Source: Lama guanicoe (taxonomy: Eukaryota). Taken from it: DNA of 64,000 nt. This document shows positions 1,490 through 62,400 of this stretch, piece after piece. Location: assembly GCA_013239625.1 (NCBI GenBank), contig MU054662.1, positions 13,691,798 to 13,755,797 of the forward strand, in the 5' to 3' direction. The notes under the pieces were generated by a model, which did not search any database, was not told the origin of the DNA, and worked only from the letters and a program-made list of their open reading frames with translations. The position numbers and the translations under genes are program-made. Each line of letters begins with the position of its first letter. The first letter of the stretch is position 1.

Positions 1490-2110
1490 GGGCCCCGGGC
1501 CCACAAGGGCACAGTGACGGCGCCCTCACCCCGCTCCTGTCCGGCACAGGGCACTGTTCCAAACGTCTGCGGCGCCCAGACTAGTGAGCGGTGACGCCCC
1601 CACCCCGCGCGCCCATCTCCCTCGTGACGCATCCCGGGAGACGAGTGTCCCTCTGGTCCACTGTCGGCCTCCTGGCCGGCCCGGCGCGGCGCGTGTGCGC
1701 GGGGCGGGCGCGGCTGCCCTAGCAGACGCCCCCCCGCGCGTGGCCGCTGGCCGAGCCAGGCTGCGCGGTGCCCCTGCGCGGGCCGTCACCGCTGATGCGC
1801 AGTGTCAAGCGTAGCCCGGCTGAAGTCGTCAGACGCACGGGGGCGCCTGACGCCGAGGCGGTCGGGGGAGAGCAGGCCCTGGGGCCCAGTGACGCACGGC
1901 ACGAGGGTTAAAGGCTCAGCAGAAGCTTCTCCGAGAGGAGACGGAGAGCGCTCCCGACCGGGGAGGAGCCTGACCGAGTGTGGAAGACGCGGTGGCTGCT
2001 GATGAGGCAGGGGGGTTGGGGGGGCAGGTGGGCCCCCGGGACTCCTGATGCCCTGAAACCGGACGGAGGTGAGGAGACGGCTCCGTGGGGCACGCGGTGC
2101 CCGGGGTGAC
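1490..2110. promoter_or_regulatory. CpG island / candidate promoter or enhancer
   Basis: Very dense CpG (e.g. ccggcgcggcgcgtgtgcgcggggcgggcgcgg at 1681-1713), a GC box and 7 TGACG/CGTCA half-sites. No linked exon identified. Confidence 0.6.
1981..2088 (+). repeat. Donor copy of a ~105-bp local duplication (partner 3274-3377)
   Basis: tggaagacgcggtggctgctga...ccctgaaaccggacggaggtgaggagacggctccgtgg aligns to 3274-3377 at about 85% identity by eye. Confidence 0.9.
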
Positions 2111-2395
2111 TTAGGGAACCTCTTGGTGCCCCCACTTCTGCTTGGGCACAAGTCCTGGCCCTCCCCTCGTCAGCAGAAAGAAGCTGGTCCCCTCCCAGCC
2201 CAGCCCCCTTGAGAGGGATGCCCCGCATCACAGGTTACCTGCCTCACAGAGGGACAACCCCTCCCCTGTCTGGGCATCTCTCTGCGCTTCTGCCGCCTCC
2301 CGGGGTGCCGCGGGACGGCCACAAGTCTGCACAAGTTGAGCGGATAGCTGGGACCTGACCCGCAGCCCAAGCACTTTAAACGTTAAAAGTGAAAA

Positions 2396-4244
2396 CACGT
2401 AGGGCTCCGATTTTTCCAGCACCGTTTAAAATGGTGTTTGTTTTTTGGCTTTTTGTTTTGTTCGTTTTACATCTTCTCTCTTGGTTTATCTTTAACGTTA
2501 CTAAAACATCACCTACATGCAAAAGAATCAGAATGGACTCCTTTCTCACATCTCGAACAAAAATAAATTCAAGAGGGATTAAGGACTTAAATCTTAGACC
2601 TGAAACCATAAAACTTCAAGACGGAAGCAAAGGCAGGACGCTCTTTGACTCTGGTCTTAACAATATTTTTTTTTTGGCTCTGTCTCCTCAGGCAAGGGAA
2701 ACAAAAGCAAAACCAAACCAACGGGCCCTAATGAAGCTAACACACTTTTGTACAGAGAAGGAGACCACCCCTAGAACGAAAAGGCCACCTACGGGGTGGG
2801 ACAAGATACTTGCAAACGGCGTATCTGATGAAGGGTTAGTATCCAAAATACACGAAGAGCTCATGCAACTCAACATCAGACAACCAAACCGCCTGATTTA
2901 GAAATGGACAGAGACTCTGAACAGACGTTTCACCAAAAAAGACACACAAATGGCCCACGAGCTCGGGACAAGATGCTCAGCATCATCAGGGAAACGCAAA
3001 TGAAAAGCACAGTGAAGATGCCACCGCGTGGCTGTCGGAGCGGCTACCAGCAAAAGGACAACACGTGACTGCTGGCGAGGATGTAGGGGAAAAACCCGCT
3101 TGCGCTTTGGTGGGAATGTAAACTGGTGCAGCCGCTACGGAAAACCGCATGGAGAGTCCTCAAAAGATTAAACGTAGAACTACCATAGGATCCAGCAACT
3201 CCACTTCTGGTTATTTTTCCCGATAAAACAAAAACACTAATTAGCAAAGATGCATGTACCCCTATGTTCCCTTTGGAAGATGCGGTGGCTGCTGACAAGT
3301 TGGGGGCAGGGGGCAGGTGAGCCCCCGGGGCCCCTGATGCCCTGAAACTGGGCGGAGGTGAGGAGACAGCTCCGTGGATCAGCATCATTTCCAAAAGCTA
3401 AGATATGAAAGCAACCCAAGTGCCCATCAATAGGTGAACAGCCAGAGACGACATGTGGTGTATTACACAATGGAATACTACTCAGCCATGAAAAAGAGTG
3501 ACATTTGCCGTTTACAACAACATGGATGGCCCTGGAGGGTATTATGCCAAATGAAGCAAGCCAGCCCAAGAAAGACAGGCACTGTATGACCTCACCTATA
3601 CGTTGGAGTCTAAAAACACAGCAAACAAACAACAAAACAGAAACAGAGTTACAGACAGAGCACAGACAAGTGGTTGCCAGAGGGAGGAGGGAGAGGCAGG
3701 AAGGAAACAGGTGAGGCGGATCAAGGGCACAGACCCCCAGCTACAAAATCCATGAGTCACAGGTGTGAAATGCACAGTGTGGCGAACACAGCCAATGGCT
3801 ATGTGACATCTCTGTGTGGTGACGGATCATAACTGGATGGACCCTGGTGATCGCTTTGAAATGAACACAGCTGTCGAGTCACTACGTTGAGTAACAGGAA
3901 CTAACGTAGTGCTGCAGGGCAATCATGCTTCAAAGCAAACAAACAGACAAACTCATAGCAAAAGAGACGAGATCTGCGGTTACCAGAGGTGGGAGGCAGG
4001 GGAAGCGGGAACTGATGAAGGTGGTCGCAAGGTGCGCACTTGCAGGTGTAATGTGAGCACGAGGGGCGTCACGCACAGCGTGACTAACATGATAAACACA
4101 ACTGTTTGCTCTGTGTTGTTAAAAAAGTAAATCCTGAGTTCTCCTCATGTGCACAAAAACTCCTTTTTCTCTTTCTTTAATTACGTATCTCTATCAGATG
4201 ATGGATATTCACTAAATTCATTGTGATAATTATTTCATGGAAAA
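2396..4244 (+). mobile_element. 5'-truncated LINE-1 (ORF2 C-terminus remnant plus 3' UTR) with 11-bp TSD and short 5' inversion
   Basis: ORF 2389..2901 reads TKINSRGIKDLNLRPETIKL...WDKILANGVSDEGLVSKIHEELMQL and ORF 3505..3714 reads PFTTTWMALEGIM; both are L1 ORF2-like. TSD aaaagtgaaaa at 2385-2395 and 4245-4255, with a TT/AAAA endonuclease site. Confidence 0.92.
3274..3377 (+). repeat. Templated copy of 1981-2088 inserted inside the L1
   Basis: A GC-rich non-L1 segment interrupts the L1 between ...cccctatgttc and agcatcatttccaaaagctaagatatg. Confidence 0.9.
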
Positions 4245-5468
4245 AAAAGTGAAAATAAAACGGCAAGATGTCTACACTCACTACACAGAAGAAATGAACT
4301 GTTGCAGCCACACGTCGAAGGCGCTCTCCTCCACTCCTGAAACGGAGCTTAGTCCCTGCCTGCAGCCTCGCGCTCAGACCTGTCTGCTCCACGCACGCAC
4401 GTCAGTCCTGAGGATGGAGGATGGAGGCAGATGCGGGGAGAGGGCCAGGTGCGGCAGGGAGGAGGCGGCCGATCCTCCCTTAGCCTCCCGGGTCCCAGGC
4501 ACTCGGGATGATGAGACACCTGCACAGATGATGGTGCAGCTTGAAAGAAGCCACCAGGTGAGAAAGGCAGGTACCCTTCCGGGAGGAAGCCCCCCATTCA
4601 AGACGCCGAGCTCACGTGAAGGATGCTGATAATGTGATAAAAGCACACCCCTTCAGGCCCCACACCTGCCCACAACCGTCCATCGCTTAATGCTTGTTGA
4701 GAAGGACTGGACCGGCTGCCTGCGGAGCCGGGGCTCCTGCCAAACGCCGTCTGCGTCCAAGCTCGCATTCGCAGTGGGACCCCTGCCCCGGGGGCTGCAG
4801 AGGCTGCCTTTCCCAAGCCAGGCCTCCCCCACAAGGTCCGTTGGGCCACCACGTAGCTTTCGCTGTGGCTGAGTTCCCTCAAGGTGTGTGTAAGAGAGAT
4901 GAAGGCCGAGGAGCAGGAGGAGGGAGCAGTCACACTTGGGCTGACCTCTTTGGTTGATCTTCTGCAAAAAAATAGTCCTCTCTATATTAATTTCTTCTCT
5001 GTTTAAAATTGTCTGATTAAGTCTCCAAAAAGCCAGGGAACTGGAATTGTTGGCAGTGTCCAGAGGGTTCAACTTCTATGCAGTCGGCAAAACGGGCGGC
5101 CCCAGGGAGGAACCCACTGTGGATGTGGGGTGTCACACCTGGCGGGGGTGGGGTGCGTCCTGGAGGCAGGAGGGAAGCAGCCTCACGGGACAAAATCGCC
5201 TTCGACACAGCCGCCTCCCGTCCTGCAACTGCGCCCTGATGTCAGCGCTGAGGTCCCCTCCGCGCCGCCCTTCCCTCCGCGGGCGGCTCCCGCGTATTTC
5301 ACCGCCTGTCCTGCCCACTCTGACACTCATACATCAAAGGATCCGAGGACGAGGAGCTTGGTTTTGGAAAGATTATTCTTGTGAAGATTTATCCTCTCAT
5401 CTCGACCACCTTGGCTGGAAGGGAGAGGTTCTCCGTAAATTATTCAACGTGCTGTGCAGGGGGAACCT

Positions 5469-5503
5469 TCCCCCCCCCCCCTCCCCCCCCCCCAACCCCG
5501 CCG
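5469..5503. repeat. Poly-C tract (G4 / i-motif capable)
   Basis: Near-pure C runs interrupted by t and aa. Confidence 0.85.
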
Positions 5504-8500
5504 CCGGACTGGCTTCCCTTCCTTTTCTTTTTCCCTTCCTGCACGTTTAGGCCCGTTCACAAATGACACAAGAAGGTAAAATGGAAGAGGGGGGTGGGAA
5601 TCAGGAAATTCGAGAATTTCAGTGGAACCTTTGAGGGAGCCCAGTGGAACGGGGGCACCGGTGTCTTTGGCCGCAGGAAGGGGCGCTCAGGAAAGGTTTA
5701 GAGCACACTTCCCAGGAGTGGGTGTGAAGGAGACACCCAGTCTGGCCTGTGCTCGGTGCCGTCTCCCGAGTGGGTGCCGTCCCCAAAGCCCCTCCTACCT
5801 GGGCCGTTTGCAGGGAGGGGGCCTGCGGCAGAGGGAGGAAGTGGCCCTGATGCAAAGCAGTGGAGGAGGCTGGGGAGGGATGAGACACCCCAGGGAGGGG
5901 TGGAGGGGACCCGGGACGGGGACCAGGAAAGCAGGGCCCTGAAATGAAAGTGGCGGCAGGAGTGATGCTGGGGCCACCCGTCTCGCTCATTCATGGAGCT
6001 CTGCCTCCACCTGGTGGGCAGTTGCTGGCACTGCACCTCGCCCGCAGGCTCCGCGGCGGAGGCGCCCTGTGCATGGCCCTCCCCGCAGGAGGAGAAGCCC
6101 TTAGGGGCTGCGTGGCCTGTGGCTGCAGACAGACGGAGGGCCGAGCCCAACCGGGAGAGAGGCTGCAGGCTGGATCCGAGCAGAGCCCGTGTCTCCCGGG
6201 GGCCCCGTGTGGCCATGGGAGGCCCCCAGTCTGGCTGCCCTGGGACCGGCTCCCAGGCTGGTCCTTTGCGGACAGCAGGTGAGCGGCCCCGGGGGGTGGG
6301 GGGGGGTGAGAAGAGCCTGCAGACTGCAGACCCGCGCAGGCAGGGCCGGGAGCTCACCTGCCCCGTGACCACGATGCCGGACGTGGAGTCGGTGGCGTGT
6401 GTGGGAAGGTTTTAGTTATTGATTTACTCCAAAAACACTTCTCAGAAGCCTGCCGTGTGCCAAACAACACTGAACAACAGGCGCCGACCTCTGCGGTGGA
6501 GCCTGCGCTCCGTCTCCGAGGCAGCGGATCGCCGAGACCCCACCTGACGTATGAGGTGTGTCCCGCGGTGGGAAGGACAGGAGAAACGCTAAACTGGGGG
6601 GAGGAGGGGTCTCCAGGGGTCCGAGGTGGGGAGAGGCCCCAGGGATGGGCACACCTGGCGTCACACCTGGAAGAGGGGGTGCGCGGGAGCCGGTGTGAGG
6701 CCCCCCGAGGCGGGGTCTGCTGTGGGAGAAGGTGGCCCCGTGCTGAGCCCTGGGCCAGGAGGCTTAACTCAAGCCTCAGACAGGACAGCCGGGAAACCGC
6801 ACTTCTAAGCCGTGTGTGCGACCCCCGCGAGGTTCACCAGGTCAGCTGGAGAAGCGGAATTAAAGAGGGGGCTGCGATGTCACCAGTGCACCCCCACCCC
6901 ACGCCCGTGTCCCAGGGCATGGACCTGCCAACTGGACCTCCTTCCCGAGATGGACGCTCCCCAGGTGTGCCCGCAGCCCCGAGGGCCCAGAGTGTGCGGC
7001 GATGCTGAGAACGAGTTGTGCGTGTGGGACGCCGTCTCTCCTGTGCAGGACGGTGCTACGGTTCCTCTCTGAGCACAGGGGCCCAGCCCGGCTCCAACGG
7101 GCACGTGAGTGCACCTGACCACGGGGGTGGTCCCTGACAGCCTGGCCCTCGTCTGCTGTCTCTCCAGACCGAGAGCTGGCTTCCCAAAGGTCACCTGCCA
7201 GCCTCTCCCTGGACGTCCCCTCGGCGTGGACGGGGGCTTTGCGTTGATGCACAAGGACAGATATGGACGACTGCGGGGCTGAAGCCCAGACCCTGCCTTG
7301 GTTGCCAGGCCCAGGACGCCCGGGCTCAGCCGTGCCGAGCCCCCTCCTGCCTCCGGCTGTGCTCACAGCTGTGCTGCTTTGCCCAGAGCATCCTCCTCTG
7401 TCCTCTCCAACCACCTAAACCCCTCACCCTCCAGGTCCTAGATCAAGCCTCTCCTGACCTCCCTTGACTCGCAGTGGGGCGCTCGCCTCATCTGTGCGCT
7501 CCCTCCTGTGGCTGCATCCTCTCTCCCCAGCTTAACTTGCTCTTTACCCGCTGGCAGGAAGAGCCCTCCTGTGTGGGCACAAGGACCAGAGGGGCCTGGT
7601 GCCCTGTTCCCTCGGAGCGCTGTTGGGCCAGCAGCTCTGTGTGTGCCCCTGCCCACCCAGGAGGGACCTTGCTCAGGTGAGTGATGGGCGGAGGGCCCAC
7701 TTGCCCCCCCTCCACTCGCACCAGCGGCCGTGCCCCTGGACGGAACCCAACCCTACGACCAGCCAGCAAACGGGGTCCCTAAACCACCTCCCAAACGGCA
7801 GAAACGTTCTTTGGACGCAGAAGAGCAGCCTATGGAGCTGAGAAGAGCCTTTAGGAGAGGCCAGGTCCGGCCCCACCACCCTTTCACAGAAGACGTCCCC
7901 AGCCCGGAGAGCCTGAGACTGGACCGAGCTCCTTGTCGGTCCAGGGAACCAAGCTCAGAGTCCCTGCTTTGCGACCTGCAGTGTTTCCACGCCGACAGGC
8001 TAAGTCCAGTCCTGGGCTCCCGCTTGGGAAGAGGCGAAAAGGAGTCCCCGTGGACCCTCGTGCAAGCCGTCGGGACACCCGGGCCGCGGTCCGTCGGCGG
8101 AGGCTGCCGCCCCGGGCTCTGCGTACGCCCAGCCCCTCGTACAGGTGCGCCGAGGCGACATGGATGAAAGTTACCTGCGAAGTGACACCACCCAGCTAAG
8201 TAGAACAAAACGACTACTAAGAAGTGACCACGCTGGTCTCTAAGGAAGCAGCTCTCACTCTACCGGTTGCTCATTCACGGGATCAAGCGCTTTAGAAACC
8301 GCAGGCGTGGCCACAGACACACAGTCGCCCAGCCTCTCAGCAGTCGTCGGAAGCACGTGCGACTGGGGCCGTTCCCCAGGGATCTGAGGCTCAGCGAGGT
8401 GAAGCCGCTGCCTTCTGCCGGGGGACGCACAGCAGTTCAGGGTGACCTTGGACCTGAAGAGGGCCGTCTGGACCCAGGTTCCAGTCTTCCTCTTGCAAGT

Positions 8501-10729
8501 TAATCCCTGCTCCTGTTTCTTCAACGGCCACCGATTCTCACGTGTCTCGGGGGGCTCCCCAGGGTTTGGAAGGAGGAACTCTCGAATCTGGGAGCTCACA
8601 CGCTTGACTCCGGCTGAACTCTTGGAAGGACTCAGGGCCAGCAGAGCTTCAGCTACTTTTTCCAGTGGAACAAACCGCCGGCCGAAGGGAGCCGCGGAGC
8701 CGCGCTGGTCTGACTTCATCTTTCTCCGGGGAGTAAAGGAAGCCCCGGAGAGGAGGAGGGTTTGAGTCAGTTGTGTGAACCCGCTCCTGGGCCAACGTGC
8801 CCAGTGCAAAACGGCGACGTGGCACCCGAGCCTCCCACCGCCTCGGCCACTGTCCTGCCCCGCGGTCCCCCGGCCTCTCCCCCCAGGGACATGCAGGCCG
8901 TCCCTGAGCCCCGTGGGCCTCACCCCAAGGCCCGCCCGTGTCCAGGGCAAGGTGCCGTCCATCCTGCGTTCAGACTCTGCTCTCCCTATGAGAACATTTC
9001 CGGTGTGTGGGTACAAATCCCACCCCTCCGGCGCGGGGCATGGGGTGGGGGCTGGGAGCCGGGCAGCGCCGGGGGTGGAGCGGGGGACCTCCCTGCTCCC
9101 TTCCCTGTATCGTCCACTGCTTTTCATTAAAAAGATTTCCTTTCTAAACGTGAAATAATACACCTTTTTAAGCCTTTTCTCAGCACACTGTCACAACTCA
9201 AGTTGATCTGATAAGCTTATTTATATTAAAGTATCAAACACTGACGCTGACAGGCTGTGTTTGGAAGCCAGACAGCACGACAGCCTAGCAATGTTCCTGA
9301 AGCCAAAGCACCGTGCTGCCAGGGGGGCGTCAGGGCTCCAGGCCTGCGGGGGCCGGGCTCGGCCCTGGGCCGGTGGGCGCGAGCTGAGGGGTCCCCTGAG
9401 CCCTGCTCGGGTAGTTGCCACGAAATGAATGCTTCCCCTGTAGACCTGAACCCCCCCAACAAAGCCGCCTTAGTAGGATTTGTACTCACATATCGGGGAC
9501 GGATGGCGGCAGTCTTCCTCTCTGTCCAAATGCACAAACAAAGCCATTTCTCGGCCCACTCCTTCATCTAATCCTGGGCCCCTCCCCTCTCGGCGCGCCC
9601 CTATTAGCCCCTGGTACCTGACGAGTGCACGGCCCAGGCCGTCTGCAGTGCCCCACGGCACGTGGACTTACGTGTTCGCAGAGGGGCCGCAGGATAACGC
9701 GACTCAAAGGAGTTGCGCTAATGGGGAAACTTAGGTGCCCGACACCCGAGTCCCGGGGTGCTTGTTGACGGACATTGCGGCAAGCCCTGTGTCTGTGTAC
9801 ACGTGAGTGAACGCGTCTGACCCACATCCCGTGTTTAGCGAGCCCAGAGTCTTTACGGACCCGTTTTCCACGCCGGCATCAGACCGAACAGCTGAGGGCA
9901 GGTGCCCTCGAACGAACCCACAGTGACTGAAGAGGTGGGCAGACAGGCAGGACCCCTGACCCAAGTCACCTGTTCACTGTCACAGACAAAGGGCGTTAAT
10001 CAGATTCAGGAGATGATCACTTAGGACATCAAAGAACAAGATAACTTGGAGCCGGAGGGATCAGAGAACTTTTGAGATCATCAAATCCAACTTCTTAGAC
10101 CGTAAAACTCCAATTTGCTGCAGTATTAGCTAGAGAACAGAGCGGAGCGATGGAAGGCACGTGCGCTCTGGAGGCTCATCAACACACACTTGGCTCTGTT
10201 TGCCGTGCGCAGCAGGTGGGCCACTGCGGGCGGGGCCCTGAGGCCCACGGAGCCTCAGTCTCCCGATCCCCAAACAGCGTAAAGACAGCAGACTAACAGC
10301 TACTGCGAGTGAGCGACGGCGCGAGTGAGGCACCGGGCGTCACACCCTGGCACAGAGCAAGCGCTTTGTTTTTAGACACAGGGATAGAACCAGAACCAGA
10401 ACCAGAGCCAGAAGCTCACTCGTTGTGAGGGTGTGTGTGGCTCCCCCGGGGGACAGCTGGTGCGGCAGGAGGGGGCTTCCGCAGCCTGGGGTGGGCTCAC
10501 GCTCGAAGCAGAGGCGACAAGGACTGTCACCGCAGAACTGCCCTCTCCCCGCAGAGCCCGACCGGCCGGAGACCCTGGAGCGGCGCTGACACCGTCCACG
10601 CCGACGCGGGCAGCGGGGAGGAGAGGAAAGCCCCACCCTCCACGGGTGCACAGACCCCAACCCGGCTCCGCGAAATCCCACCCTAACAAGTCTGGGCTCT
10701 GTTTAGTCGGTGTCCTGAGTGCATGTTAA

Positions 10730-10965
10730 CAATAAATAAAGCTTCAATAAATATGCAAAGCAAAAACTAATTTAAATTGACACTTGTGTCCGGGTGGGGC
10801 CAGAGAGAGTCCTTTACACCATGAAGTGATTTAGGATCCATCGCCTCCGGCATCTGCATTACAGATTTACCTCTCATTACAGCCGTGTTAACTGGAAAAG
10901 GCAGCTTCTCGACAACACGCGAGGCACGGCTTATTAGCATAAATTTGCATAACGATTAGCTCTGC
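10730..10965. promoter_or_regulatory. Candidate enhancer with clustered POU/octamer motifs
   Basis: AT-rich non-repeat island with ATTAGCAT (10933-10940), ATTTGCAT (10943-10950) and ATGCAAAG (10753-10760). Confidence 0.45.
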
Positions 10966-12584
10966 GGCACGCAGGGGCCCTGTGTCTTTCAAACAGGCAA
11001 CTTTCAGTGTCAATTTTCTGTGCTTCTCTGCTTGTCCCTGTTTGTCTAAAGCTCCCGGAACCCCGTGGCCCTGCTTCTGCTGGTTCCTAAGTTCTCTCCA
11101 CTGGTGCGTTTAGGCTCAAGATTTCACAGCCTCTGCCCGGCTCCCCGCGGGAGGGAGGGGACTCCGGGCTCCAGCTGGGGACGTGGGTGAGGAGAAGCCA
11201 TCCCAAGGTCCTTGAGTGTGAGGACAACAGGACACGGCTACACCCACTGTCCACTCAGCTGTCAAACACCACGGAGGGAACGCGCCGGTGGTTAATTCCC
11301 AAGGGGAGGCCATGCTCAGCTGGTTTGGAGGCACGAACCCTGTTGTTGAGCAGCAGTTTCCTTTATAATTAGGTTGTGTCTAAGCTAATGTCGCAATGAT
11401 CTCCCTCCCGCTGCCTGGGCTCCTGCCAGCTGGGTGGTCAGCGCAGGGCGGCCAGCCCAACGTACAAGGACGGAAACCAGGCCAGGGGTGACACCGAGGG
11501 CACCTGGGCTGAGGGTGGACGGAGGCTGGCTTTCCCAACTCTGTCAGGACCAGGAGGTGGGCAGGGAGGTCCTGCCCTGGGCTTCCGTGAGTTTTCGCAA
11601 ACAGCCGCCCACCTCCTGAGATGCAGCACTCGCCCTCCCCAGGGAACCGGGCTCCTTCCCAGCGCTCAGGATGAACGTGGACGTTCCCCTGCAACGGGAG
11701 CGAAGGAGAGAGACTGGGGTGCGGTGCACCTGCTCAAAGAGCCGCACGACAGGGAACGTTTGTCAACGTGCAGAAATGTGCTTCCTCTGCAAAAACAGAA
11801 TCTGCCAAGTCGACGTGCGTGAGGCTCTAAGGCAGGAGCATGTCCACAGCCCTCAGACCCCCCCCCGGAGGGGAGGGCTGAGCCCCGCCAAGCCGGGAGG
11901 TGACCGGGACAACGAGGGATCCGCTGCGCTCCCAGGAGCCCGGTGTCGGGCTCAGACATCCGGGCAATCCACGCGGCCAGAAAAAATTGTATGCGTATAT
12001 AAATATTAATATTTGTGCTGTGTATTTTGTAAAAGTCTCAGCCGTGACCCCGTCTCACACGTGGGATGAGGATAAAAATGCGATTTGTTGAGTGTTTACT
12101 ACTCCGGGGACCCGTTTTCCGAGCCCTCCTGTTGTCTCAAGCAGCAAGCACGAGCTGCATGTCTAGGGGTGTGATGAGACTTGAAGACCCTTCTGACTCC
12201 AAAACACACATTCTTTCCAAGCAATCACAGGGGCGTAACGGAAAATCGCTGGCCCGGGAGTCAGCACGCCTCCGTGTGTCCCTGCTACCTGCAGCGGCAC
12301 GTGGGCACATCGCCCCGGAACGCGAGTGAACCAGGGGCAGCAGTGGGGACGCCAGAGCTGGAGCAGGTGCTCGGTCGCCGTGCCCGCTGGTCAAGCGTTC
12401 ATTTCTCAAGTGATGAAAGGAAGCCAGACGCTTTTACAGTTTTACTAAGTGTTTGGACTGTTCCCCGGAAAAACGCACCAATCAAACATGCATTCAAAAT
12501 GTTACAGAGTTAGCACTCATGGGCCTCCTGCAAATCTTCTATTTCTAAGATCCTGCAAATCCAAGACTGAATCTCCCCGATGTG

Positions 12585-16000: not shown

Positions 16001-16157
16001 CCCAGGCTGCACACACGGACCGCGTTGTTGTCAGCGTTGCCTCTCACCTGGCCCGTGAAGAAGGCGTGGCCCATCTGCCTGGGGACTCTGAGCACGTGGC
16101 CCAGGCAGGGAGGCTCTTCAGTTAGGACCAGCCCCGGACACATGGACGCGCCCCCCC

Positions 16158-16221
16158 NNNNNNNNNNNNNNNNNNNNNNNNNNNNNNNNNNNNNNNNNNN
16201 NNNNNNNNNNNNNNNNNNNNN
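16158..16221. other. Assembly gap (64 N) with identical flanks
   Basis: gacacatggacgcgccccccc occurs at both 16137-16157 and 16222-16242. Confidence 0.98.
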
Positions 16222-16349
16222 GACACATGGACGCGCCCCCCCACCCCACCCCCCAGTGTCTGGGGCCCCCTCTGCCTTGGAGAGAGCTGGGCCCTCTCAA
16301 AGACAAGGCCCTCGGGGAACCTGGAAGAGCTGACAGCAGTCAGCCTGCA

Positions 16350-18870: not shown

Positions 18871-20246
18871 CCGGCAGGAGGAGGGTGTGAGAGTGACTCC
18901 CTGCTCCTGAGCAAAGCAGGAGCTGGTGAAAGGCAGCAGGTTTGAAAGCTGAGAGTCTCCCCTCCCTGCCCGGGCCCCTTGTCTGCTCCGCGCAGAGGAG
19001 GAGGCAGGCAGCCCTTGAAGTCACCTCCAGTCTAACCTGCCCCGGGTCCCTGGGCCCTGCTCCTCTCACCCACCTGCACTGGTGCTGCGCGGACACAAGA
19101 GGGCGCTCCCTGCCTGTGGATTTTAAACACCCTGCGGTCCCTTCAAACTGAGCATCAGAGCAGAAACTGGAGCTGACCCCCCACAGCGCCCCACATCCCT
19201 CAGTCCAGGCTGTCACTCAGCTAGAGAAACACGAAGCACACGCACACCGTCATTCAGGGCAGGTGTCAGAGAAGTCCAGAGAGATGGCCTCTTTCGGGTG
19301 GCCCTGCCTCCCGGGTCCCTCAGACATGCCCTGTCCTCCCCCCCACGACCCCAGTGTCCTGCTTGCCCAGCACGGTCCCCGCCTGCCCCCCCCCCGTTCT
19401 CCCGAGCTGCTGTCCCGCCCACGAAGGCATCTGCTGTTGGCAGGTCACTGCAGATGCACACTTTGTGCCGGTGGAAGCTGAGGGAGGAAGGAGTGACCGT
19501 CAGAGCTGACCACAGGGCTGGGTCACGGCACGGCCACCTCCCTTTCCCTGGTGGTGCTCAAGGCCGACCACGCAGGAGCTGGACAGGGGTCCGCCTTTCT
19601 GATGGGCAGCTGGGGTCCATGGCACTTAAGATCATTCCCCACCATTAATTTTTAATGTTAGTGGATTCTACTTGTGGTCTCCAATCTGATTTCTTTTAAA
19701 ATAATTTAAATTCCCTTTAAAATTCTGCCTGGAGTACTCCAGGCTTGTCCTGGGGAACCTGTTAAGGGGCCGGCCGGGGAAGGGATGGCACTGTGCCACG
19801 CGGACCACAGGGTCCCTGGACGGACAGCCCGGGTCACATCTCCCCTCTGGTATCAGGTCACCGTGTGATCTAAATGCGGTCACCGCCACCTCCGCTGGGA
19901 ATGAACTAGGAGATGGCCGGGGCCCCAGGCACCTCCCACGTCCTCCCCCTCAGTCGGCTGCAGGAGATACCTGCGCTCCTTGAAGACGTCGGGGGCGAAC
20001 GGGGCGGCCCCTCCAAGAGGCCCGAGGGCGGCTCTCCCTCCCCTCAGCGAACCACCCCGAGGGATGCCTTGTGACCGTCAGCCGTGCTGGCAGCGCAGTT
20101 TCATAGAATGAATTCGACGTGAGAGGTGCCGGAGCCCACGGATGCCGGGGGAGAGAACCCACCCCGGCCGTGAAGGGGGTCCTCACTCACCCACCCTCCA
20201 CGCCAGACCCACTGGCCAGTCTGCAGGCAGAGCTGCAGCACCCCCA

Positions 20247-20296
20247 CCGGACAGGCAGACAGCCGGACAGCCAGACAGCCGGACAGCCGGACAGGC
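20247..20296 (+). repeat. 8-bp tandem repeat (GGACAGCC variants), about 6 units
   Basis: ccggacaggcagacagccggacagccagacagccggacagccggacaggc. Confidence 0.9.
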
Positions 20297-23149
20297 AAGC
20301 TGACCTTTGATCGACAAAAGCAGGGCCGTGGGGCGGTGCCCCCCACACGCTGAGGTGCACACCCCCCCATGGGGCTCTGCTCCTGTGGGTCCGAGACCCT
20401 TGGCTGTAATGAGCTCCCTGGAGCATCTGCAGCTGGTGTGGTCCATACCTTGTGGGGAGGGCAGGGGCGACACACGGCTCGCGCGGGCTTGGGTGTCTCC
20501 CCCTCCTCCCGGGGTGATGGGGGCAGCGTCTGTCCCACCTCCCAGGTCAACTGTGAAAAGACCCGAAGGCACCCCTGCGCGGGGTCCTGTCGGAGCTGCC
20601 CTCTTGCCCCAAGCGGGGCTGGGAGTGTGGGGGCCACGGGTCCCTGCGGCATCTATGTCAGTGGTGCCGACCAGCAGGCAAGAGGCTTGTGCCACGGGCC
20701 GTCCCCGCACCCCACACACCCAGGGCTGGGGACCCACTGCACGCCCGCCCGCCCTCGGCGTGAGCCCACCTCTCATCAGCCTCCCATCCTCTGCGTCTGT
20801 AGCCACCTTCCCCCCCGCTGGAAGGTTCTGCGGCCCATCCTCCACCTCGACTGGGGTGCCACGTCCCCCGGGAGGCCCCCAGGGCCCCCAGGGAGCAGCT
20901 CGGGCCCCTCCCCCGAGCCTCACTGCTGTGTGCTGCGCCCAGTTTCTTGTTGGAGCTCACTCCTCTGCCGAGAGCGCCTGCACATCCCAGGGTCACACCT
21001 GGTTGGCCCTGGAGCCCAGGCCCAGCGCAGTGCTTCCTGGGCAGGCCGGGGGAGGGGACAGCCTGCCCCCCAAACCTGGACAACGGTTCAGCTCCCGCCT
21101 CCAAGGGAGGCCTGCACCTGCACTCTGGACCCCCCCCCAGAAGGGGAAGGTTCCCCCTGGCCAGGAGGACAGCCCTCGGTGGGGGTGGGGGGCAGCTGGG
21201 GGCTACTTCTCCGTCTGCCGTCCCGGGAGGCGCCGGCGATGCGCAGGGCCCGCGCCTCCCCAGCCCCCGCTCACCACCTGGGGCCGCGCTTCAGGCTGTG
21301 GCCCACACAGCCCGGGGCCTCCTGCCTGCCGCCCCTCCCCTGGGGGGAGGACCCCCCCCACCCGCGGTCGTCTGCACAGTCCCTCACCACCGCCTCAGTC
21401 GCCCACTTCCAGCCAAACGTGAGGACGCAGAGTGGGGGCGGGGGGGCTGCTTCACACCCGCGACACCTCCCTGTGATGGGCCCTCATCAGCCCATCACTG
21501 GCTGCCGGGGCCACTGCAGCCCCACATGGGCCCTGCCGGCCCCCGCGTGCCCGCGCTCCCTGCCCTGGCACCCCTGTGGCTCCTTGTTCTTCACACCCGC
21601 CTTGGACCAGGCTCCCACTGCAGCAACAAGAGCCCCAGCCGGAGAGGAACACGGCCACGAGCGAGGAGTTTAAGGACAGCCCGGCCTGGACGGGCACCCG
21701 TGCGCCAGTCAAGCAGCCGCCCAAGGTGGGGGCACAGGGCGGGGGGCCTGGGCGGGGGCCTCCCTGCGCCCTCCGGCCCCCCTTCACCGCGGCCCAGCCC
21801 TGTTCCCACCCGCCAGAGGCCTCTCCTGGTGCCGGCACATCCAAGCTCAGCATCTCCTCACGACAGCGCAGGGGTCAGAGATGGAGGAGAAAGGACTCCA
21901 TGCGTTTATGGCGTCTTTCCCTTTAGGACGGAGAAGCCTGAGGTGAGTCTGTGTCGGGGGAACGTTCCCCACCAGGGCTGGGCTCCCCCGCCCCTCCCCA
22001 CCTGCTACACGCCCACTCACCATACACACGCATGCACACTCACTCATAACAGACGCGTGTGCTCTACACATGCGTGCACACGGGCACACACACCGCACAC
22101 TCCCACGTCACATGCACACTCACACGTACAGTGAGTTTTAGGCACAGGCGTTAAACCACAAGTCTCTTTGGAAACGTCCCTCTCTGTCCCTTGATACAGA
22201 AAACATACAGGCTTCGGATTCACCAGGAACTGGACACGCACTGCTGTCTTGCCAGCCGTGGGGACCCCCCCCAGGGTCCTGAAGGCACCGTCACGTGCAC
22301 GTCCCCCTCAGCCAGCCACACGGTCCTGGGAGGGACTGCTCCTGAGGCCGGGGAATCGCTCACTGCCTGGGGTTCTGGCCGTTGTGATGGGGGAACTGAG
22401 GCCTCTCTGCCTCGTGCAGAGACCCCCCTTCCGTGAGGAGAGCAGATCAAAGGGATGGAGAGACACAGAGTCCTGGCGAGGCCACCTGGCCCCAGGGACC
22501 CGGGGTGCCTGGAGGCAGGAGCCACCACCACTGAGCCAACAAATCCACATTTTCCAAAGCTGGATTGGCTTCGGCTGCACCTTTGCCACTTGCAGTCAGA
22601 AATGACCCGGCGACGCACCGCTGACGAACAGGCGTCTCATGCTCACGGTGTCCTGGAGGAGATTAGCTCGCACACGCCCTTGATGTTGGGGGGTGAGAGC
22701 GTGAACCCCACTAAGGGGCCCCAGGTCGCGTGCCAGATGCTCTCGGGGGAGGCTGGGGCCCGGCTGGGCGGGGAGAGTCCGGGCGGACGTGCCGTGGGAG
22801 CGGGAAGGCTCCCCGCGTACGGGGCTGACGGTGAACCTGGGAGACTTCCCAACGGCAGACGACTTCCCCTTTCTTTGAACTCCTATTGTGGAAAGAACTC
22901 ATTTGGCAATTAATCTTATACAGCCCTGTGACATCTTCTCTATTGTTGTCTGGAACTGTTATTTTAATCTTTTGTCACTAATTAACTTTTTCATGCTCCT
23001 GCCTCGGCTCCCTAACTAGACGGCAAATTCTTTGAGAGCAGAGACCTGTCTTGGCTATTTTTAACTGGCAGGAAGACCGGATTCCACGTTGCGTGCAACC
23101 GCAGAAGAGACCTGGAGAGTGGGTTTTGTTATTTCATTATTTATTATTT

Positions 23150-26365: not shown

Positions 26366-26399
26366 AATATATAAGAAAACGTGCACGCAGGGAAGGCAG

Positions 26400-38656: not shown

Positions 38657-39001
38657 CAGCGGTTCTCAACCAGGAGCAGCGTGCCCGACACAACTCAAAG
38701 CTATTTCTTCTTTATATGAATCTTAGGGGTTTGGTTCCATTCCAATCTTTTAAAAAAATTATTCTTTGTACTTTTTAAAATTTTTGAATAGGTCTCAGAC
38801 CTCTTTACATTCTAGGTCACTGACTTTGGGACAAAAAAAAAAAAAGGAAACAAAAATTCTTAAAAGACTCGGGCGGGGCTTCTATTGGCATCTAGTGAGC
38901 AGGGGCCGGGCAGCTAATAACTTCCCACCAGGCACAGGACAGGCCACACTGGAGAGAGTCACTCAGTCTAAACGCCAGTGGTGCTGAAGCTGAAAACCCT
39001 G
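38657..39001 (+). mobile_element. MER20 (hAT-Charlie) DNA transposon split by a 172-bp insertion
   Basis: 5' end cagcggttctcaacc; resumes with ctattggcatctagtgag...gcacaggacag...tgctgaagctgaaaaccctg. Confidence 0.85.
38696..38867 (+). repeat. 172-bp templated copy of 40854-41025
   Basis: 4 mismatches in 172 bp by manual alignment. Confidence 0.97.
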
Positions 39002-39699
39002 GCTGGCCCATTAAGGCAACACAAGGCCAACAGACAAGGACGGGATTAAGAAAGGTAAATTTTGCGTTTCGGGTTCTGGAGCGCACATCCTCCACTGAGC
39101 AGAAAGCTTAGGATAATGTGTGTCCTCAGCAGTGAGGATCTGTGACCATGCCCGCGTGACAGCAAGGAAGCCTCATACCCACCAGGCTCAGAAAAGGCGT
39201 GACCGGTGCTTTGCCCCCGCCCGGCGCTGCCACACCGTGAGCTCTGCACCTCGTCGGGTCACTCAGGCTCCGAGCACGAAACAGAGGTGACAGGCCCTGT
39301 GGGTGATGCCACATTCTTCTTGAAGCATAAACTGGGTTGCCGTGCAAGGAAGGCAGTGCAGTGTTTCGAGAAGGGCCTGAAAGTCAGGAGGTCGGGCTCT
39401 GAACAAGTTTGTCACGTGATCTGGAACAACCTATGTCTTCTCCATCCTGGGCCCAGATTCCTCTTCCTCCATTAAATGTGACGGTGACTTTGACCTCAAA
39501 GGTAGTAGCTTCCGGCTCTGATCATCTGTAGGGTTCTTTCTCTTTCCCTGACACCCCGCTCCCGGCTCTGAGTCAGGTGGGCACCCGGCCGTGCAAGAGC
39601 GTCTCCCTGGGGTGCTGCCAGTGAGGCTCGGCGCTAGGGGCAGGGAGGCGTGGAGCACAGACGCCGGCCGGGGGGTCTGGGGCTGTGCCGTCATCGCCT

Positions 39700-39850
39700 T
39701 CACGCTGTCAGGCAGTTATCTGACTTCCCAAACCCTCAGGTTCCTCATCTGGGAGGTGGGAACCGTCATGACAACACCCCCCTGCGTGTCTGTTGGCAGG
39801 AGGAACTGAGATGACACACATAAAGGGTTTGGGACAGCCCCAAAGTAAGG
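39700..39850 (+). mobile_element. MIR fragment
   Basis: ggcagttatctgacttcccaaaccctcaggttcctcatctgg...actgagatgacacacataaaggg. Confidence 0.65.
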
Positions 39851-40853
39851 AGCTACGTCACGGCCCAGCCCGGGGATCTGGTCTCCGGGTCAAGGGTGAG
39901 GAGTACAGTCCTCCTCCCTCGGTCAGTCTGTGCTCTGCAGGAAAGAGACCGCTGAGCCTCGTTCCGGGTCGTGGGTGAGGAAACAGCACACATGTGCAGG
40001 AACCCCCGCAGAACACTGCTGTGCCACGTGCAGTGCAATGGCCGAAAACAAGCCACGCGCCCTGGCACGGGAGCTGGCGTCCCTTCCCTGTGGCTCGGAT
40101 GGAAGCTCAGTGTCCCTGGGCAAATATCCATCCCTGTCTCTGCCTTGTGGCTGGGGAGCAGGGCTTTCCTGGAGCGCACGCCCCCGGCCCCCCCAGCGGT
40201 CTCTCGGCACGTGTCCCTGTGCTCGTCTTTCTCCCACGCCAGCTCCCACGCGGCCGGGGCACATCCAACGCCCAGGAGGGACGGGCTTCACCCAGGTGGG
40301 TCCTCGTCATCCGTCCCTCTGGGGCTGCCTTTAAACCCAGGGGGCACCGCCTGCCTGGGCAAGCACTGTGCCTGGGTGACCCCTCTCCTCCGCTGACGGG
40401 GCTCCCACAAAGCACCCCCAGGGCCGGGAAAGGGTCTCCTTCTGTTTTCAGTTCTGTTTTTCTTGGGGTGAGGGAAGGGCTAATCCTTCACAGGCGATAT
40501 TGGGCCCGTCCCCTCTTAGGAAAACACGCTGATACTTGATGAGACCCCCACCTGGGACTGACGGCTGTTAATAACCTGGGAGACGCGTGGGGGAGGCCCG
40601 CACCGCCAGCCACCGGTGTCTGGGACTCTATTTCTCATCAGCTGTCACTCAAGGGCAGGAGTGAAGGATATTATGTCTTTTCTTAAGACGTTGCTGTGGA
40701 CCCACAGACGCTGGGCGGGGGAAATCATCCTGCTCAGCCACCTGCACGCGGGTTCCTAGGAAACAGATTGCCAGGCTTGTAAGTCACATTCAAATAATGC
40801 ATCTATGAACTTCTCTCACCCCGGTTTTGATAAGGTGATGGGCAGCTGGGAGA

Positions 40854-41025
40854 CAAAGCTATTTCTGCTTTATATGAATCTTAGGGGTTTGGTTTCATTC
40901 CAATCTTTTAAAAAAATTATTCTTTGTACTTTTTAAAATTTTTGAATAGGTCTCAGACCTCTTTACATTCTAGGTCATTGACTTTGGGCCAAAAAAAAAA
41001 AAAGGAAACAAAAATTCTTAAAAGA
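40854..41025 (+). repeat. Donor copy of the 172-bp duplication
   Basis: Matches 38696-38867 and lies in unique sequence. Confidence 0.97.
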
Positions 41026-46299: not shown

Positions 46300-46484
46300 C
46301 CAGCGACCAGGAAAGCAGCAGTGTGCCCTCCTGCACAGAGCGGGCGTGGACGCGGCCCAGCGAGCGCCTGTTCCCCGGCAGACGGCTGGTCCCAGCGACC
46401 AGGAAAGCAGCAGCGTGCCCTCCTGCACAGAGCAGGCGTGGACGCGGCCCAGCGAGCGCCTGTCCCCCAGCAAACGGCTGGTCC
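46300..46484 (+). repeat. Tandem duplication, 2 x 92 bp
   Basis: Unit cagcgaccaggaaagcagcag...acggctggtcc starts at 46301 and 46393; about 5 mismatches. Confidence 0.95.
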
Positions 46485-55297: not shown

Positions 55298-55529
55298 CTC
55301 TCTTTCTTAACTGAGGTATAGTCGGTTGCAATGTGTCCATTTCTGGTGCGCAGCATCATGTTTCAGGCATGCGTATACACACGGATATTTGTTTCCATAG
55401 TCTTTTTCATTATAGGCTACTACAAGATATTGAATATAGTTCCCTGTGCTGTACAGTATAAACTTGTTTATCTATTTTATATTTAGTAGTTACTATCTGC
55501 AAATCTCGAACTCCCAGTTTATCCCTTCC
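55298..55529 (-). mobile_element. Short young L1 3' end (camelid/cetartiodactyl-like) with 15-bp TSD
   Basis: ctacaagatattgaatatagttccctgtgctgtacag...ctcccagtttatcccttccc. TSD ccagactatgtcttt (55283-55297) and ccagactgtttcttt (55530-55544), followed by aaa. Confidence 0.88.
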
Positions 55530-57569: not shown

Positions 57570-58110
57570 GCGAGCGCGGTCACCCAGACGGCAGCGCGCC
57601 AGGCACGGCCGCTGGAGAGCTCCGCGGCGGGCCGGCAGCGGTGCTGGCCGGGAAGCACCACTGCCCCCTCGCAGGCCCCTTCTGATCGTTCGCTCCCCAC
57701 CCGTATCTACTCAGAAGACCTGCGCGTCTCCCCACCTGGCGGGAGGGCCTCACTGCCAGCGCCTGCAGTTCGGGAGGCGGTGTCAGGCCGAGCGGGAGTG
57801 GGGACAAGAATCAGCGCCCCGTCCCCTTTCTACCCAGGAAGGGGGCTCCTGCGAGGAGGCGAGGCAGGGCGAGGGCGGAGGGTGATGTGGGACGCGGTGC
57901 TGGGCGGGAGGAGGGCGGCAGGAAGGGGAGAACGCGCTGGACGGGAGGTTCCAGCCCCGACGGCCACACCCAAGCCCACCTCAGACAGGGCTGGCGGCCT
58001 GAGCGGGCCCGCGGTGGGGCGTGTGTGAGCGCCTCCCCCGCACTGCAGGTCCAGGTGGTCACGGAAGGCCCCGCGGCACACGAGGGGTGGACGGCAGCGC
58101 GGAATCTTCC
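57570..58110. promoter_or_regulatory. CpG-rich island with a CTCF-like motif
   Basis: Dense CpG; the minus-strand sequence ggcctgcgagggggcagtg (57659-57677) resembles the CTCF core. Confidence 0.4.
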
Positions 58111-58359
58111 AGCACTAGCAATAGCGCTGCCTCCTCGGGGCAGGGTTGGCTTTCAGGCGATGGAGGTGGAGGGACCGGACCCCAGGAAGGGGCATGCGGT
58201 CTGGAAGAAGGCGCTCTCAGGGGAGAGGGAGGGAGAGAGAAGGAAGGAGGGAGGGGTTGGGGCCACACTGGAAGACACATTGGAAATCTAGGGTGTGGCT
58301 GGACTTTGCAGGACCTGGAATGTGTGGGCTTTAGGTGTCAGTTAAGGAAAACGTCGCAC

Positions 58360-58409
58360 TGTGTGTGCGTGTGCGTGTGTGTGCATGTGTGTGCGCACGT
58401 GTGTGTGTG
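58360..58409 (+). repeat. Imperfect (GT/GC)n alternating purine-pyrimidine tract
   Basis: tgtgtgtgcgtgtgcgtgtgtgtgcatgtgtgtgcgcacgtgtgtgtgtg. Confidence 0.9.
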
Positions 58410-60441
58410 GTGCAGAGGTTGGCAACTTGTGAGAGTGTTTTAGGGGATATCATTTCTCAGTGAAAGAAAATGGTCATCAGAAACCTGCCTCTAAAAAGGT
58501 GAACTATTTTGGGAAAACAATTAGGACGGAAGCCCTCAAAAAACCTGCCTATTTCCAGGACCCAAAAGGCCAAAAGCACCGTTAATGTAAAGGATGATTT
58601 TGTCATCACTGGTTCAGGGCCCATTTAACAACAGGAAGCTTTTTTTGTGGAAATGTCCCCCCAGAAAAAGAAAGAGGGAGAGAGGAATATTTTTATAGAG
58701 CGTTTAGCTGAGCCTCTCTTTGAAAATGTTTCTCATTCTTGGCTTTTCCTGATGAGGTCACGTCTGATGGACTGTCCTGCCTGGAAAAGGCGCTCGCACT
58801 TCTGGGAGGAAAAGGAGTTTCTTTGGGATAAACAGTGTTCTTATTCTGTTGACTCATTTATTTTTTTAACTGTTTAAAATCGAGGCCTACATAATTCTGG
58901 AATTCTACTCAGGCACAAAGAAGAACAATAATTCTGTATTTTTACTATTAAATGTGCTGACATGTTTTCGCTTTTTCGTGTGTTTTAAACAAGGAGGGTT
59001 GACCAATGAGTGAAAGGCGGGTCAGGGAGTTCCAGGGGCCTCCCACCGGCTCGGTGCTCGGGCGCAGGCGCGTCGTGCTGGCCGTGTCTGCCGGGTTCCT
59101 GACCCTGAGCTCACATACCCCTGCTTCCAGGTCACGTTGCTTTGGGAACCTTCTCTGAATGCCAAGGGCCCACGAAGCAGGCCCACGGCCCGGTCTGCAG
59201 TGAGGCTCCTTGCGACTTAACATTCTCTCTCCTCCTGGGAAAAAGGCCCGCGTGTGTGTTCACGTCATGTTCCTCCCCTTTCCATTTGGGGCGACGTCTC
59301 ACACTTCAGCAGTAAATTGCACCTCCTAGCAACATCAGAAGCTCTTAAGTTTGCCAGGAAGATCGACCTCCAGAGAAAGTGGGAACAGTCTAGAGAGGTT
59401 TGCAAACAGAAAATTACACACACGTGAAGTTAAAACAGGTTCGTTGTAAGAGTCCTTTGTGAGAAAGTGGGGGTGCCTCTGTGCAGGGAAGGTAGCTGTG
59501 GGGGGGGATCCTGGCAGCCTCCTGTCTGCGCCCCCCTGACCCTGGCCCCCGCAGCACAGATCCTCTGTGGTGGCCCGGACGGCTAGGACTTGCTTCTGAT
59601 TTGCAGAGTGCTCCCTAACCTCTCAAAATCAAGTCTCTTCATCTGACAAGTAGGACCATCTGCTCAGTTCCCTGCTTGTGACTCCACGGTATACAACGTG
59701 CCTTCCGTCACCATTCTTCCTCCTCAACCTGGATCACCGCATCCTATTCGTGCCTGAAAGAAAGACTCTCCTCCCATGGGTGGGGGAACACCGCTCCCCC
59801 GACCCCAGCAGGTGCTACAGGCTGTAAGGCTCCAAAGCCACGCCCTAGAGGGAAGCCCGCAGGTCCCCCGCGACGGCGCTCCTGGAGATGCTCCTGTGAC
59901 GCACTTGCCTCTGCTGGGCTCTGCACCATTTCTGGGGCTGTTCCACTGGGAGGAAGTCTCTTCCCATTTAGAAACTCACAGAGTGTCACCACGACCTAAG
60001 CGTCTCCTCTCTGGTCAAAGGAACAGCCTCTGAATGTTACGTACGTGGAGGGTTCCCCAACTTACGGAAGGACGCCTCTCGTAGGAATTTGTTTGCTGAT
60101 TGTACGGAGCACAGTGTGGACTTGGGCTGTTAGGGATTGTCAGGGTTCTCCCCTGGATGACAAAAATAATTTTAACCCTTAATATTACTGAAAGACTCTC
60201 ATGTAGTCCTGCTACACTAATAATTAAGCAACATGAGAAAACAATGAACTAAATTAATCTCCCTTCTTTGAAAGTTCGTTGAGGGTAGAAACTGCATCAT
60301 ACCTTCCTCGCTTGACTCACCAGCAGCGACACCCACACAGGGCGGACCGTGCGCCACGTCCTGTCCAAAGGCTCCAAACGCAGTGAGTAACGGAACCCTC
60401 CGCCGACCTAACGAGGCCGAGGCTCTGTGCTGCCTCCCCCA

Positions 60442-60564
60442 GGCAGGTGCAGTCACCGGGCACTCGATGGTCAGCACCAATTCTTCGTGTCTTCTACCAA
60501 AAGAATAATTTTCTCAACATGTTTTTAGGGCAGGTGCAGTCACCGGGCACTTGATGGTCAGCAC
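60442..60564 (+). repeat. 36-bp direct repeat flanking a 50-bp templated insert
   Basis: ggcaggtgcagtcaccgggcact(c/t)gatggtcagcac at 60442-60477 and 60529-60564; insert 60477-60526 is identical to 61939-61988. Confidence 0.97.
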
Positions 60565-61379
60565 GCGGTGAAGCTGGACTGTGGGCCGGCGGGAAAGAGC
60601 ACTACAGAGGTGCCTGCTGAGCACAGAGACGTGAAAAAGCGCTTCCATTTGGGTGCCGACACTCTGAAACGGGTGCCTGCTGGGGAGACGTGGGGCGGGT
60701 GAGCTGGCCCTTCCACGGGAGCGTCTGGTGTCGCAGAGGCAGTGGGCGGGGGGCTGCTGCTGCCCTGCTTTCCCACCCGAATGCCGGGCTTGGGTTTTCC
60801 AGGAGTGGGTGCCGGGCTAAGGCTTGTCCCCAGGCCAGTCACGGTCAGTCTTTTACGTTTTCCCTGCAGATGGAGATTAAGGGGAGCAAGTGTGGTTTTC
60901 CTGAGGTGACTGGACGTCTCAGCAAGACGAAGGAAAGGAGGAAACAGCGTGAGTCTGAGGAGACAGTGTGAAGTGTCACTGCAGGAGGTGGAGGGAGGCA
61001 GGGAGGAAGGGAAGGACGGTCCCCGTCCTGGTTGAACTTTCCCTGGAGTCGCGCGTCCACCACACACGTCTCGACTGGCACCCTCCACTCCTGCCTCTGG
61101 ACCCAGCCCTACAAAACACACACGTGCTTTCTCTCTTTCTCTTGTTCTCCCTCGACCTTCGGACCAGATCCTCTGTGTGCAGAGCTGGATCAAGCAGGTA
61201 TGCAGGTGCTGAGGACGACATAGCCTTTCTCCCCGTGGGTCCCTGGGTCCACTCTGGACGAGGACGCCCAGCTCTCTTCCACTCTCCTCATTTCCTACGA
61301 CTCTGTGCTCCATAACCGTCACTTCTACACCACGACTCCACACGTCTCTCGGGGGCCCCAAACGTCCCTGCCTCCTGGG

Positions 61380-62400
61380 CGCTGCAGCTGGGCGCTCCCT
61401 GCCGAGAGCTGAAACCTGCTTTTGCTCCCGGAGGAGGATAAACTCCTCAACCATTAGCATGACCACCACCTCCATCCACTCTCACCTGAAACTCTGCACA
61501 CCTGAGGCTAGAATTACCCTCTCCCCCTCCTTACAATTTTGTCCCCCTAATTTCCTTAACAATATGCTGCTTCTAGAATCGTCCAGGATGAAAATGTGGA
61601 TAAACACTCCATCTTTCCTTTATCCCCTAAATCTGAGCTGTCGCCAAACCTGACCCAACCCTCCTGCACCATCTCTGCCTCTTCTGTCTTCCCTGGTCTC
61701 TCACTGTCACCACCTCGACCGTCAGGCTGTTCCCATCACTATGCCAAGTTCCTGGCGTTTGAGAGCCTGGCCTTGGTGGGTCAGAGCCCACACTCTGCCT
61801 TTCTTAGAGCAATTCAGCGAAATAGCAGTGGTGCAGACCACACCGAGCAGCTGACGTGATGGAGCAGTCCCACGGCGCCTTCTCAGGCATCAGTAGTCAC
61901 CACCAAAATTACTGCTTCTCTCTGGCTTCACATCTCTCCCAATTCTTCGTGTCTTCTACCAAAAGAATAATTTTCTCAACATGTTTTTCTGACCAAACAA
62001 CTTCACTAATCTAAACCACAAAAGTTGCCCCAGTGTTTAATAAATAAAATGAAACCCCTGCGGCCTGGCACTCGGCGTCCCCTCGGCACGTCCCCTCACC
62101 CGACTGTCTCTGCTCCGCTCGGGTCCCGGTGACTGGCTGGCGGCTCCCAGGACCGGTGTCCACGCCACCTCTGCTGTTTTGACGTCAGCCCCGCATCAGA
62201 TGGAGCCTGGACCGCAAAGCTGTGCGGCGGCAGCCCCGTCTGTCACTGCTCCTCCCTCCTCGGGCCCCGTTTTGCGTCTGCATCAGCACTGCGGACTCGG
62301 TGCTAACTGCGTACTGTCTCTATTGTCTTCATCTCTAGACTCCAAAGCCTAGAGGTTCTGAGACCTGATTTTACTCACCGCTGTGGCCCTGTCAGCATGC
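61380..62400 (+). mobile_element. L2 LINE remnant (patchy)
   Basis: ccatccactctcacctgaaactctgcac, ctagaatcgtccagg and tattgtcttcatctctagactccaaagcctagagg resemble the L2 3' region. Confidence 0.55.
61939..61988 (+). repeat. Donor of the 50-bp insert at 60477-60526
   Basis: ccaattcttcgtgtcttctaccaaaagaataattttctcaacatgttttt, 50/50 identical. Confidence 0.97.

Follow-up and report, generated by a model that had tools for sequence, protein, structure and literature searches.

Three short segments each occur twice, in the same orientation, within 64 kb of the Lama guanicoe genome. Does this locus record a repair process peculiar to the region or the lineage, or does it hold ordinary repair-mediated duplications (RDs) that happen to lie close together? 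The stretch, which we call the window, covers C3616:13691798-13755797 and has 55% guanine plus cytosine (GC). It belongs to an assembly of 2.05 Gb in 55,231 contigs that is of short-read style with patched gaps. An initial annotation described for each pair a donor and an inserted copy (events 1 to 3, in order of position) and ascribed all three to a persistent regional or lineage-specific process. The reading that we consider highly probable is plainer: events 1 and 2 are ordinary and independent repair duplications, event 3 is an assembly error or a private allele, and the cluster arose by chance.

As features of the assembly, the three pairs are confirmed as they had been described. Self-BLAST of the window gave nine non-self matches, three of them the pairs themselves, one the short duplication that flanks event 3 and five tandem or simple-repeat matches; with E values of 1e-18 to 1e-79, chance matching is excluded for the three pairs. 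All are direct, and the spacings of 1293 bp (event 1), 2158 bp (event 2) and 1462 bp (event 3) agree with the 1.3-2.2 kb given earlier. The inserts measure 104, 172 and 50 bp, the last being 49 bp if its shared base is left out. A genome-wide DNA search, which passes over very common words and simple repeats, found two copies only, and no third, of the event 1 and event 3 segments. For event 2 it returned, besides the two copies, the leftover contig C54613, which derives from the same locus, and one weak match, an A-rich 39 bp on C7076 at the donor end. No added poly(A/T) tail is present at any of the events: the A run at event 2 and the terminal T5 at event 3 are also in the donors, and the reported lack of a terminal poly(A) tail therefore stands.

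The direction of copying is likewise as claimed, from a split repeat at events 1 and 2 and from an empty site at event 3. For event 1, polarity is shown because the host repeat is unbroken in its paralogous copies, being contiguous across the insert site in all 11 that were fetched. This old LINE-like repeat we take to be an L1, a name that no search returned. Donor and copy are 83% identical by BLAST and agree in 91 of 108 alignment columns, with 13 substitutions and four gap columns. In event 2 the agreement is 168/172; the four differences are spread out and none is at a CpG. The interrupted repeat here, presumably a MER20, runs unbroken at 4/4 other loci into sequence like the left flank, as judged by eye, the left half giving no significant BLAST alignment. 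Also by eye, some 45 bases of this repeat are missing to the left of the insert (38657-38695) relative to locus L022, and the same repair event may have removed them. With the rate of 2.2e-9 substitutions per site per year taken in PMC2671141, event 1 would be about 30 million years old, too high a figure to the extent that CpG decay adds to the differences, and event 2 about 5 million years old.

The leftover contigs bear on whether the event 2 copies are real. C54613 stops 49 bases into an 82-bp stretch that is exact in both event 2 copies, and the ends of C54612 match two other repeat copies exactly over 49 and 54 bases; C54614 and C52000 have no terminal repeat match. Contig ends at 49 bases point to a word length near 49 and to a graph branch at this place, and therefore suggest that both event 2 copies were present in the assembly's own reads, an argument based on two of the four leftover contigs examined.

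No repeat was found at the flanks of event 3, and its history was read from other animals. Four runs were considered over 59500-63000, of which two were informative, X2 (organism B) and X8 (organism C); X1 and X14 returned nothing here, an outcome that can be false, and were not counted. Runs X21-X24, with almost none of the words of the region, were set aside. Reads of both X2 and X8 connect 60440 to 60528 and skip 87 bases. An empty site at event 3 is thus seen in two of the four runs, and the filled allele, whose junctions reads had been expected to support, was seen in neither informative run. The two 50-base copies are identical (50/50), as reported. The flanking duplication, given before as 36 bp, is better described as 37 bp with two differences and one extra base at 60527; each of the differences is a CpG loss in one copy. 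No differences from X2 or X8 occur in the 941 bp to the left of the first 37-bp copy, and two new changes in 37 bp have a probability of 0.001-0.008 at the local divergence. Two differences in 37 bp beside none in 941 bp fit two joined haplotypes or an older duplication. The genome search returned no leftover contig over event 3.

Table 1 Features of the three events, in window coordinates
Feature	Position	Strand	Evidence
Event 1 donor, GC-rich two-copy DNA	1981..2088	+	BLAST, genome search; 7 CpG (copy, 4)
Old LINE-like repeat split by event 1	2510..4239	+	2510-3269 and 3380-4239 matched 26-30 deep in the 1.86-Mb sample
Event 1 inserted copy, then 2 extra bases	3274..3377	+	Flanks joined at offset -2 in 11/11 other repeat copies
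Short old repeat split by event 2	38657..39001	+	Right half matches 4 other loci, 72-82%
Event 2 inserted copy	38696..38867	+	4-bp target repeat 38693-38696 / 38867-38870; 1 donor-shared base per junction
Stretch identical to leftover contig C54613 (2020 bp)	38925..40944		Genome search
Event 2 donor, 27% GC	40854..41025	+	Self-BLAST, genome search
Event 3, 37-bp duplication, copy 1	60441..60477	+	2/37 sites differ from other animals
Event 3 inserted copy (49 bases + 1 shared), extra base at 60527	60477..60526	+	Absent in runs X2, X8
Event 3, 37-bp duplication, copy 2	60528..60564	+	Equals the empty allele of X2 and X8
Event 3 donor, 30% GC	61939..61988	+	Present in X2 and X8

An assembly error is the likely explanation of event 3, and failing that a private allele. 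On balance we lean towards a chimera formed at a contig join. It could have come about if a long-insert library read over a circle junction joined the donor end to 60528, which would give the same direct order. The insert of 49-50 bp is close to the 49-base contig-end length of two leftover contigs. On the other side, four background pairs (see below) measure 45-53 bp, so that this length is not rare, and a 51-bp case has been validated in pig (PMC3248578). That event 3 is a young private allele we hold to be possible, as a tentative second choice, and that it is an older insertion later deleted in the relatives appears doubtful. A perfect local copy of 49-50 bp inside a short duplication calls, in this assembly, for support from reads if it is to count as a repair scar.

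Duplicated ends, of 12, 21 and 39 bp, also stand at three of the 12 N gaps in the genomic sample described below. A 64-base N gap at window 16137-16242 has an exact 21-bp duplication on both sides, and on C4216 (18.028 Mb) two 39-bp copies enclosing an A-rich spacer of 15 bases resemble event 3 in layout on a smaller scale. About 108-112 kb to the right of the window end (171850-176270 in window-based numbering), C3616 carries a 2.2-kb tandem duplication (98-99% identity) that contains an N gap and probably represents two haplotypes placed one after the other.

To what known class do the events belong? Proximal RDs were described by Pace, Sen, Batzer and Feschotte (2009, PMC2671141), who give 824 human cases with a donor within 5 kb, a mean length of 162 bp (maximum 619 bp), a mean spacing of 1.2 kb and no clustering trend. 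Tails were found in 0/39 RDs inspected there, and donors may lie upstream or downstream. The junction marks are microhomology of 2-9 nt, filler of 1-68 nt, deletion of 1-15 nt and target duplication of 4-21 nt, and the mechanism was inferred from the junctions in that study too. Detection there needs a split annotated repeat. The reported densities, stated to be minimums, are 0.18-0.26 per Mb of transposable element (TE) DNA in four non-primate mammals and 0.52-0.65 in primates.

The window events resemble RDs in their length of 50-172 bp (the RD range here being at least 50 bp and at most 619 bp), in a donor 1.3-2.2 kb away (50 bp to 5 kb), in having two copies and no added tail, and in a divergence of 0-13%. 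They are also alike in the split repeat as a marker, in filler or a short target repeat, and in donors that lie upstream or downstream. Rows in the first part of Table S1 of PMC2671141, which has no orientation column, look like them. The split repeat, which is a detection device and not part of the RD mechanism, is found at event 1 (11/11 copies) and event 2 (4/4 loci, the left half by eye) and not at event 3. The two extra bases of event 1 and the 4-bp target repeat of event 2 lie within the published ranges, the overlaps at event 2 being of 1 base only; event 3 has one extra base and a 37-bp duplication that lies outside the range. Unlike the published cases, for which 2-9 nt of microhomology were scored, the window junctions share 0-1 bases, and event 3 departs further with a 37-bp target duplication, against 4-21 nt, and a position outside any detected repeat. 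No camelid is among the 10 species of Table 3 in PMC2671141, and none of the 12 literature matches listed, out of 315, contains the word camelid, a statement that applies to those matches and not to the literature at large.

Other systems offer partial likenesses. A 51-bp insertion in an exon of pig Tex14 (PMC3248578), which causes male infertility, is a validated germline case in an even-toed ungulate: a unique segment in the same orientation, taken from 360 bp downstream, with little target damage. An exon was struck there, whereas the window copies lie in DNA without a detected protein family. PMC8654963 treats polymerase theta joining of failed intermediates of synthesis-dependent strand annealing (SDSA), which is similar in that repair synthesis is followed by end joining at the kilobase scale; its tandem duplications differ in being head-to-tail and in coming from C. 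elegans repair mutants, and are not short copies taken from 1-2 kb away. Doublets (Thomas et al. 2004) are described in PMC2671141 as short local duplications, (nearly) identical and <100 bp, that share many RD attributes. Only event 3 answers to this description. Doublets are also said to have a same-strand bias and a 1-kb spacing.

How unusual are three such pairs in one window? We scanned a sample of 1.864 Mb. Besides the window it takes in the contiguous flanks (600 kb) and 27 blocks from elsewhere (1.2 Mb) of our own choosing; part of these blocks were picked for high GC and 16 are single 10-kb stretches, so they are not a random sample. Pairs of 35-1000 bp with at least 80% identity and a gap of at least 50 bp, non-tandem and within 100 kb, numbered 141, of which 123 were discarded as multi-copy in the sample. 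The 18 retained comprise 14 at 0.5-5 kb, none at 5-10 kb, three at 10-50 kb and the short duplication of event 3. Outside the window there are 11 pairs in 1.80 Mb, or 6.1 per Mb (confidence interval, CI, 3.1-10.9), of which eight are direct, three are inverted and eight have a spacing of 1-2 kb. Both flank pairs that were searched singly are two-copy genome-wide (2/2). Two neighbouring pairs on C3168 are doubtful, one of them reaching the end of a 540-bp element that is multi-copy; without both, the background count is nine. Restricted to at least 50 bp, the rate outside the window is seven in 1.80 Mb, or 3.9 per Mb (CI 1.6-8.0).

At this background 0.32-0.39 pairs are expected per 64 kb, and three or more have a probability of 0.004-0.007. 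Between 138 and 239 windows with at least three would be expected genome-wide (34-1093 over the CI of the larger count). With event 3 dropped, the probability for the remaining two is 0.04-0.06. If eight events are drawn uniformly over 664 kb, some three fall inside 60 kb in 62% of draws. A density scan of the kind that the initial annotation had proposed, by orientation, distance and GC, thus puts the window itself nominally above background but gives no significant excess in the flanks, which hold five pairs in 600 kb (8.3 per Mb) against six in the other 1.2 Mb (P = 0.52; five against four without the doubtful pairs, P = 0.17; the power is low), and it reveals no GC effect (6.1 per Mb in both GC-rich and GC-poor DNA). 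Two other places on the same scaffold gave no pairs in 100 kb. Nor do distance and orientation, which had been read as the sign of a special process, set the window apart: pairs elsewhere in the genome, at 5-6 per Mb, are alike in both, the published class has a mean spacing of 1.2 kb, and with the background ratio of orientations all three would be direct with a probability of 0.38. A window with three such pairs is likely to be an extreme produced by chance where the genome as a whole carries about 5-6 pairs per Mb.

We consider it improbable that such copying is unusually frequent, whether through a lasting hotspot in this region or through a repair habit of the lineage. Such a process would account for three pairs where 0.32-0.39 are expected, for 8.3 per Mb in the flanks as against 3.3-5 per Mb elsewhere, and for 3.9 per Mb (pairs of at least 50 bp) where 0.18-0.65 per Mb of TE DNA are published. 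Yet the flanks are not significantly above the rest with or without the doubtful pairs, the other places on the scaffold are empty, GC is without effect, and uniform draws cluster as tightly more often than not; if event 3 is false, two events remain, with the probability given above. The published rates are minimums that need a split annotated TE, and so are not comparable with 3.9 per Mb. A bolder form of the idea, in which the lineage would make or keep local repair copies at several times the level of cow or dog (some 8,000-12,500 per genome) with a sharp reach of 1-2 kb and a direct bias, and in which event 3 would be a new allele with flanking copies from different homologues, a trace of inter-homologue templating, is in our view unlikely as well, if not quite so much.

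Three further explanations deal with how the pairs arose. Each could be the remnant of a tandem duplication of 1.3-2.2 kb whose middle was later deleted from one copy. The topology would be identical, with one duplication-type and one deletion-type junction, the direct bias would be explained, and in helq-1 mutants of C. elegans failed SDSA does give rise to tandem duplications with a median of about 1 kb (PMC8654963). At both events 1 and 2, however, the deletion would need to come back to the original site to within 0-4 bases, and no inverted pairs could result, yet three of the 11 background pairs are inverted; we judge this very improbable. Reverse transcription of a local transcript by LINE-1 would be in keeping with the short target repeat of event 2 and with the AT-rich donors of events 2 and 3 (27% and 30% GC). 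The marks of a LINE-1 retrocopy or transduction, added poly(A) and a distant source, are lacking at all three events, a copy made through RNA has no reason to insert as near as 1-2 kb to its source, and the proximal cases inspected in PMC2671141 had no tail either, which makes an RNA route hard to credit. That all three pairs are assembly artefacts is the least credible of all. Leftover contigs do duplicate scaffold sequence in 3/4 cases examined, and event 3 is absent from other animals' reads; but 13 substitutions in 104 bp at event 1 are beyond any assembler, four spread differences in 172 bp at event 2 are far over the 0.15-0.35% seen between animals near event 3, and C54613 breaks off 49 bases into the event 2 shared stretch, as expected of a branch in the graph.

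Events 1 and 2 are thus likely to be ordinary, independent repair-mediated duplications. Insertion of a segment templated 1-2 kb away, as first proposed, fits both the two-copy segments and the junctions, which have at most one shared base, 0-2 extra bases and, at event 2, a 4-bp target repeat. In the pathway we envisage, a germline double-strand break would be resected, and one 3' end would prime 1-2 kb away on the intact sister or homologue, copy 100-170 bases and be released. The released end would then be joined to the other end of the break, an aborted SDSA completed by end joining. One repair step with both ends held is favoured over a tandem duplication followed by a deletion because events 1 and 2 return within 0-4 bases of their departure. 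SDSA, fork template switching and polymerase theta joining are inseparable by sequence.

Several points weigh against ordinary duplications clustered by chance. The window is nominally enriched about eightfold (conditional P = 0.011), and the 664-kb block including the window's three pairs differs from the rest with P = 0.03-0.10 (eight against four, P = 0.03, without the doubtful pairs), a comparison that is biased by selection. The background rate is based on 9-11 events; a split repeat could be demonstrated for 0/11 background pairs, and repair may not be the origin of all of them. The evidence for events 1 and 2 comes from the assembly, and at 37 bp the target duplication of event 3 is longer than the 4-21 nt of the published range.

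The sample contains some pairs worth recording in their own right. L175:9726-9778 (C55230, 20.01 Mb) is a 53-bp direct copy that lies 1.9 kb from a 98% identical partner; by eye it has a short filler and a target repeat of some 9 bp, and we read it as a young repair-type copy. At L197:3302-3578 (C3616, 13.415 Mb) lies a 281-bp direct pair of 83% identity, 1266 bp apart and two-copy genome-wide. C6476 (20.04-20.06 Mb) has two inverted pairs of 201 and 420 bp (82%), 21 and 14.6 kb apart and unique in the sample. Within the window, a 70% GC island at 20000-22000 contains open frames of 370-440 codons without a Pfam match, and a 92-bp unit forms a tandem pair, 94% alike, at 46300-46484. The curated Pfam cut-off was reached by none of 150/159 stop-to-stop frames of at least 110 amino acids, with two weaker matches below threshold, a search that short exons could escape.

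As matters stand, events 1 and 2 add two more instances, in DNA without a detected protein family, to a class described in 2009, and this in itself matters little. Of some use is the spacing. PMC2671141 warns that the 1.2-kb peak may be an artefact of transposon markers, and a scan free of transposon anchoring also places 8/11 background pairs at 1-2 kb. A lineage-wide excess, if it were shown by one method across species, would bear on why RD rates differ among mammals.

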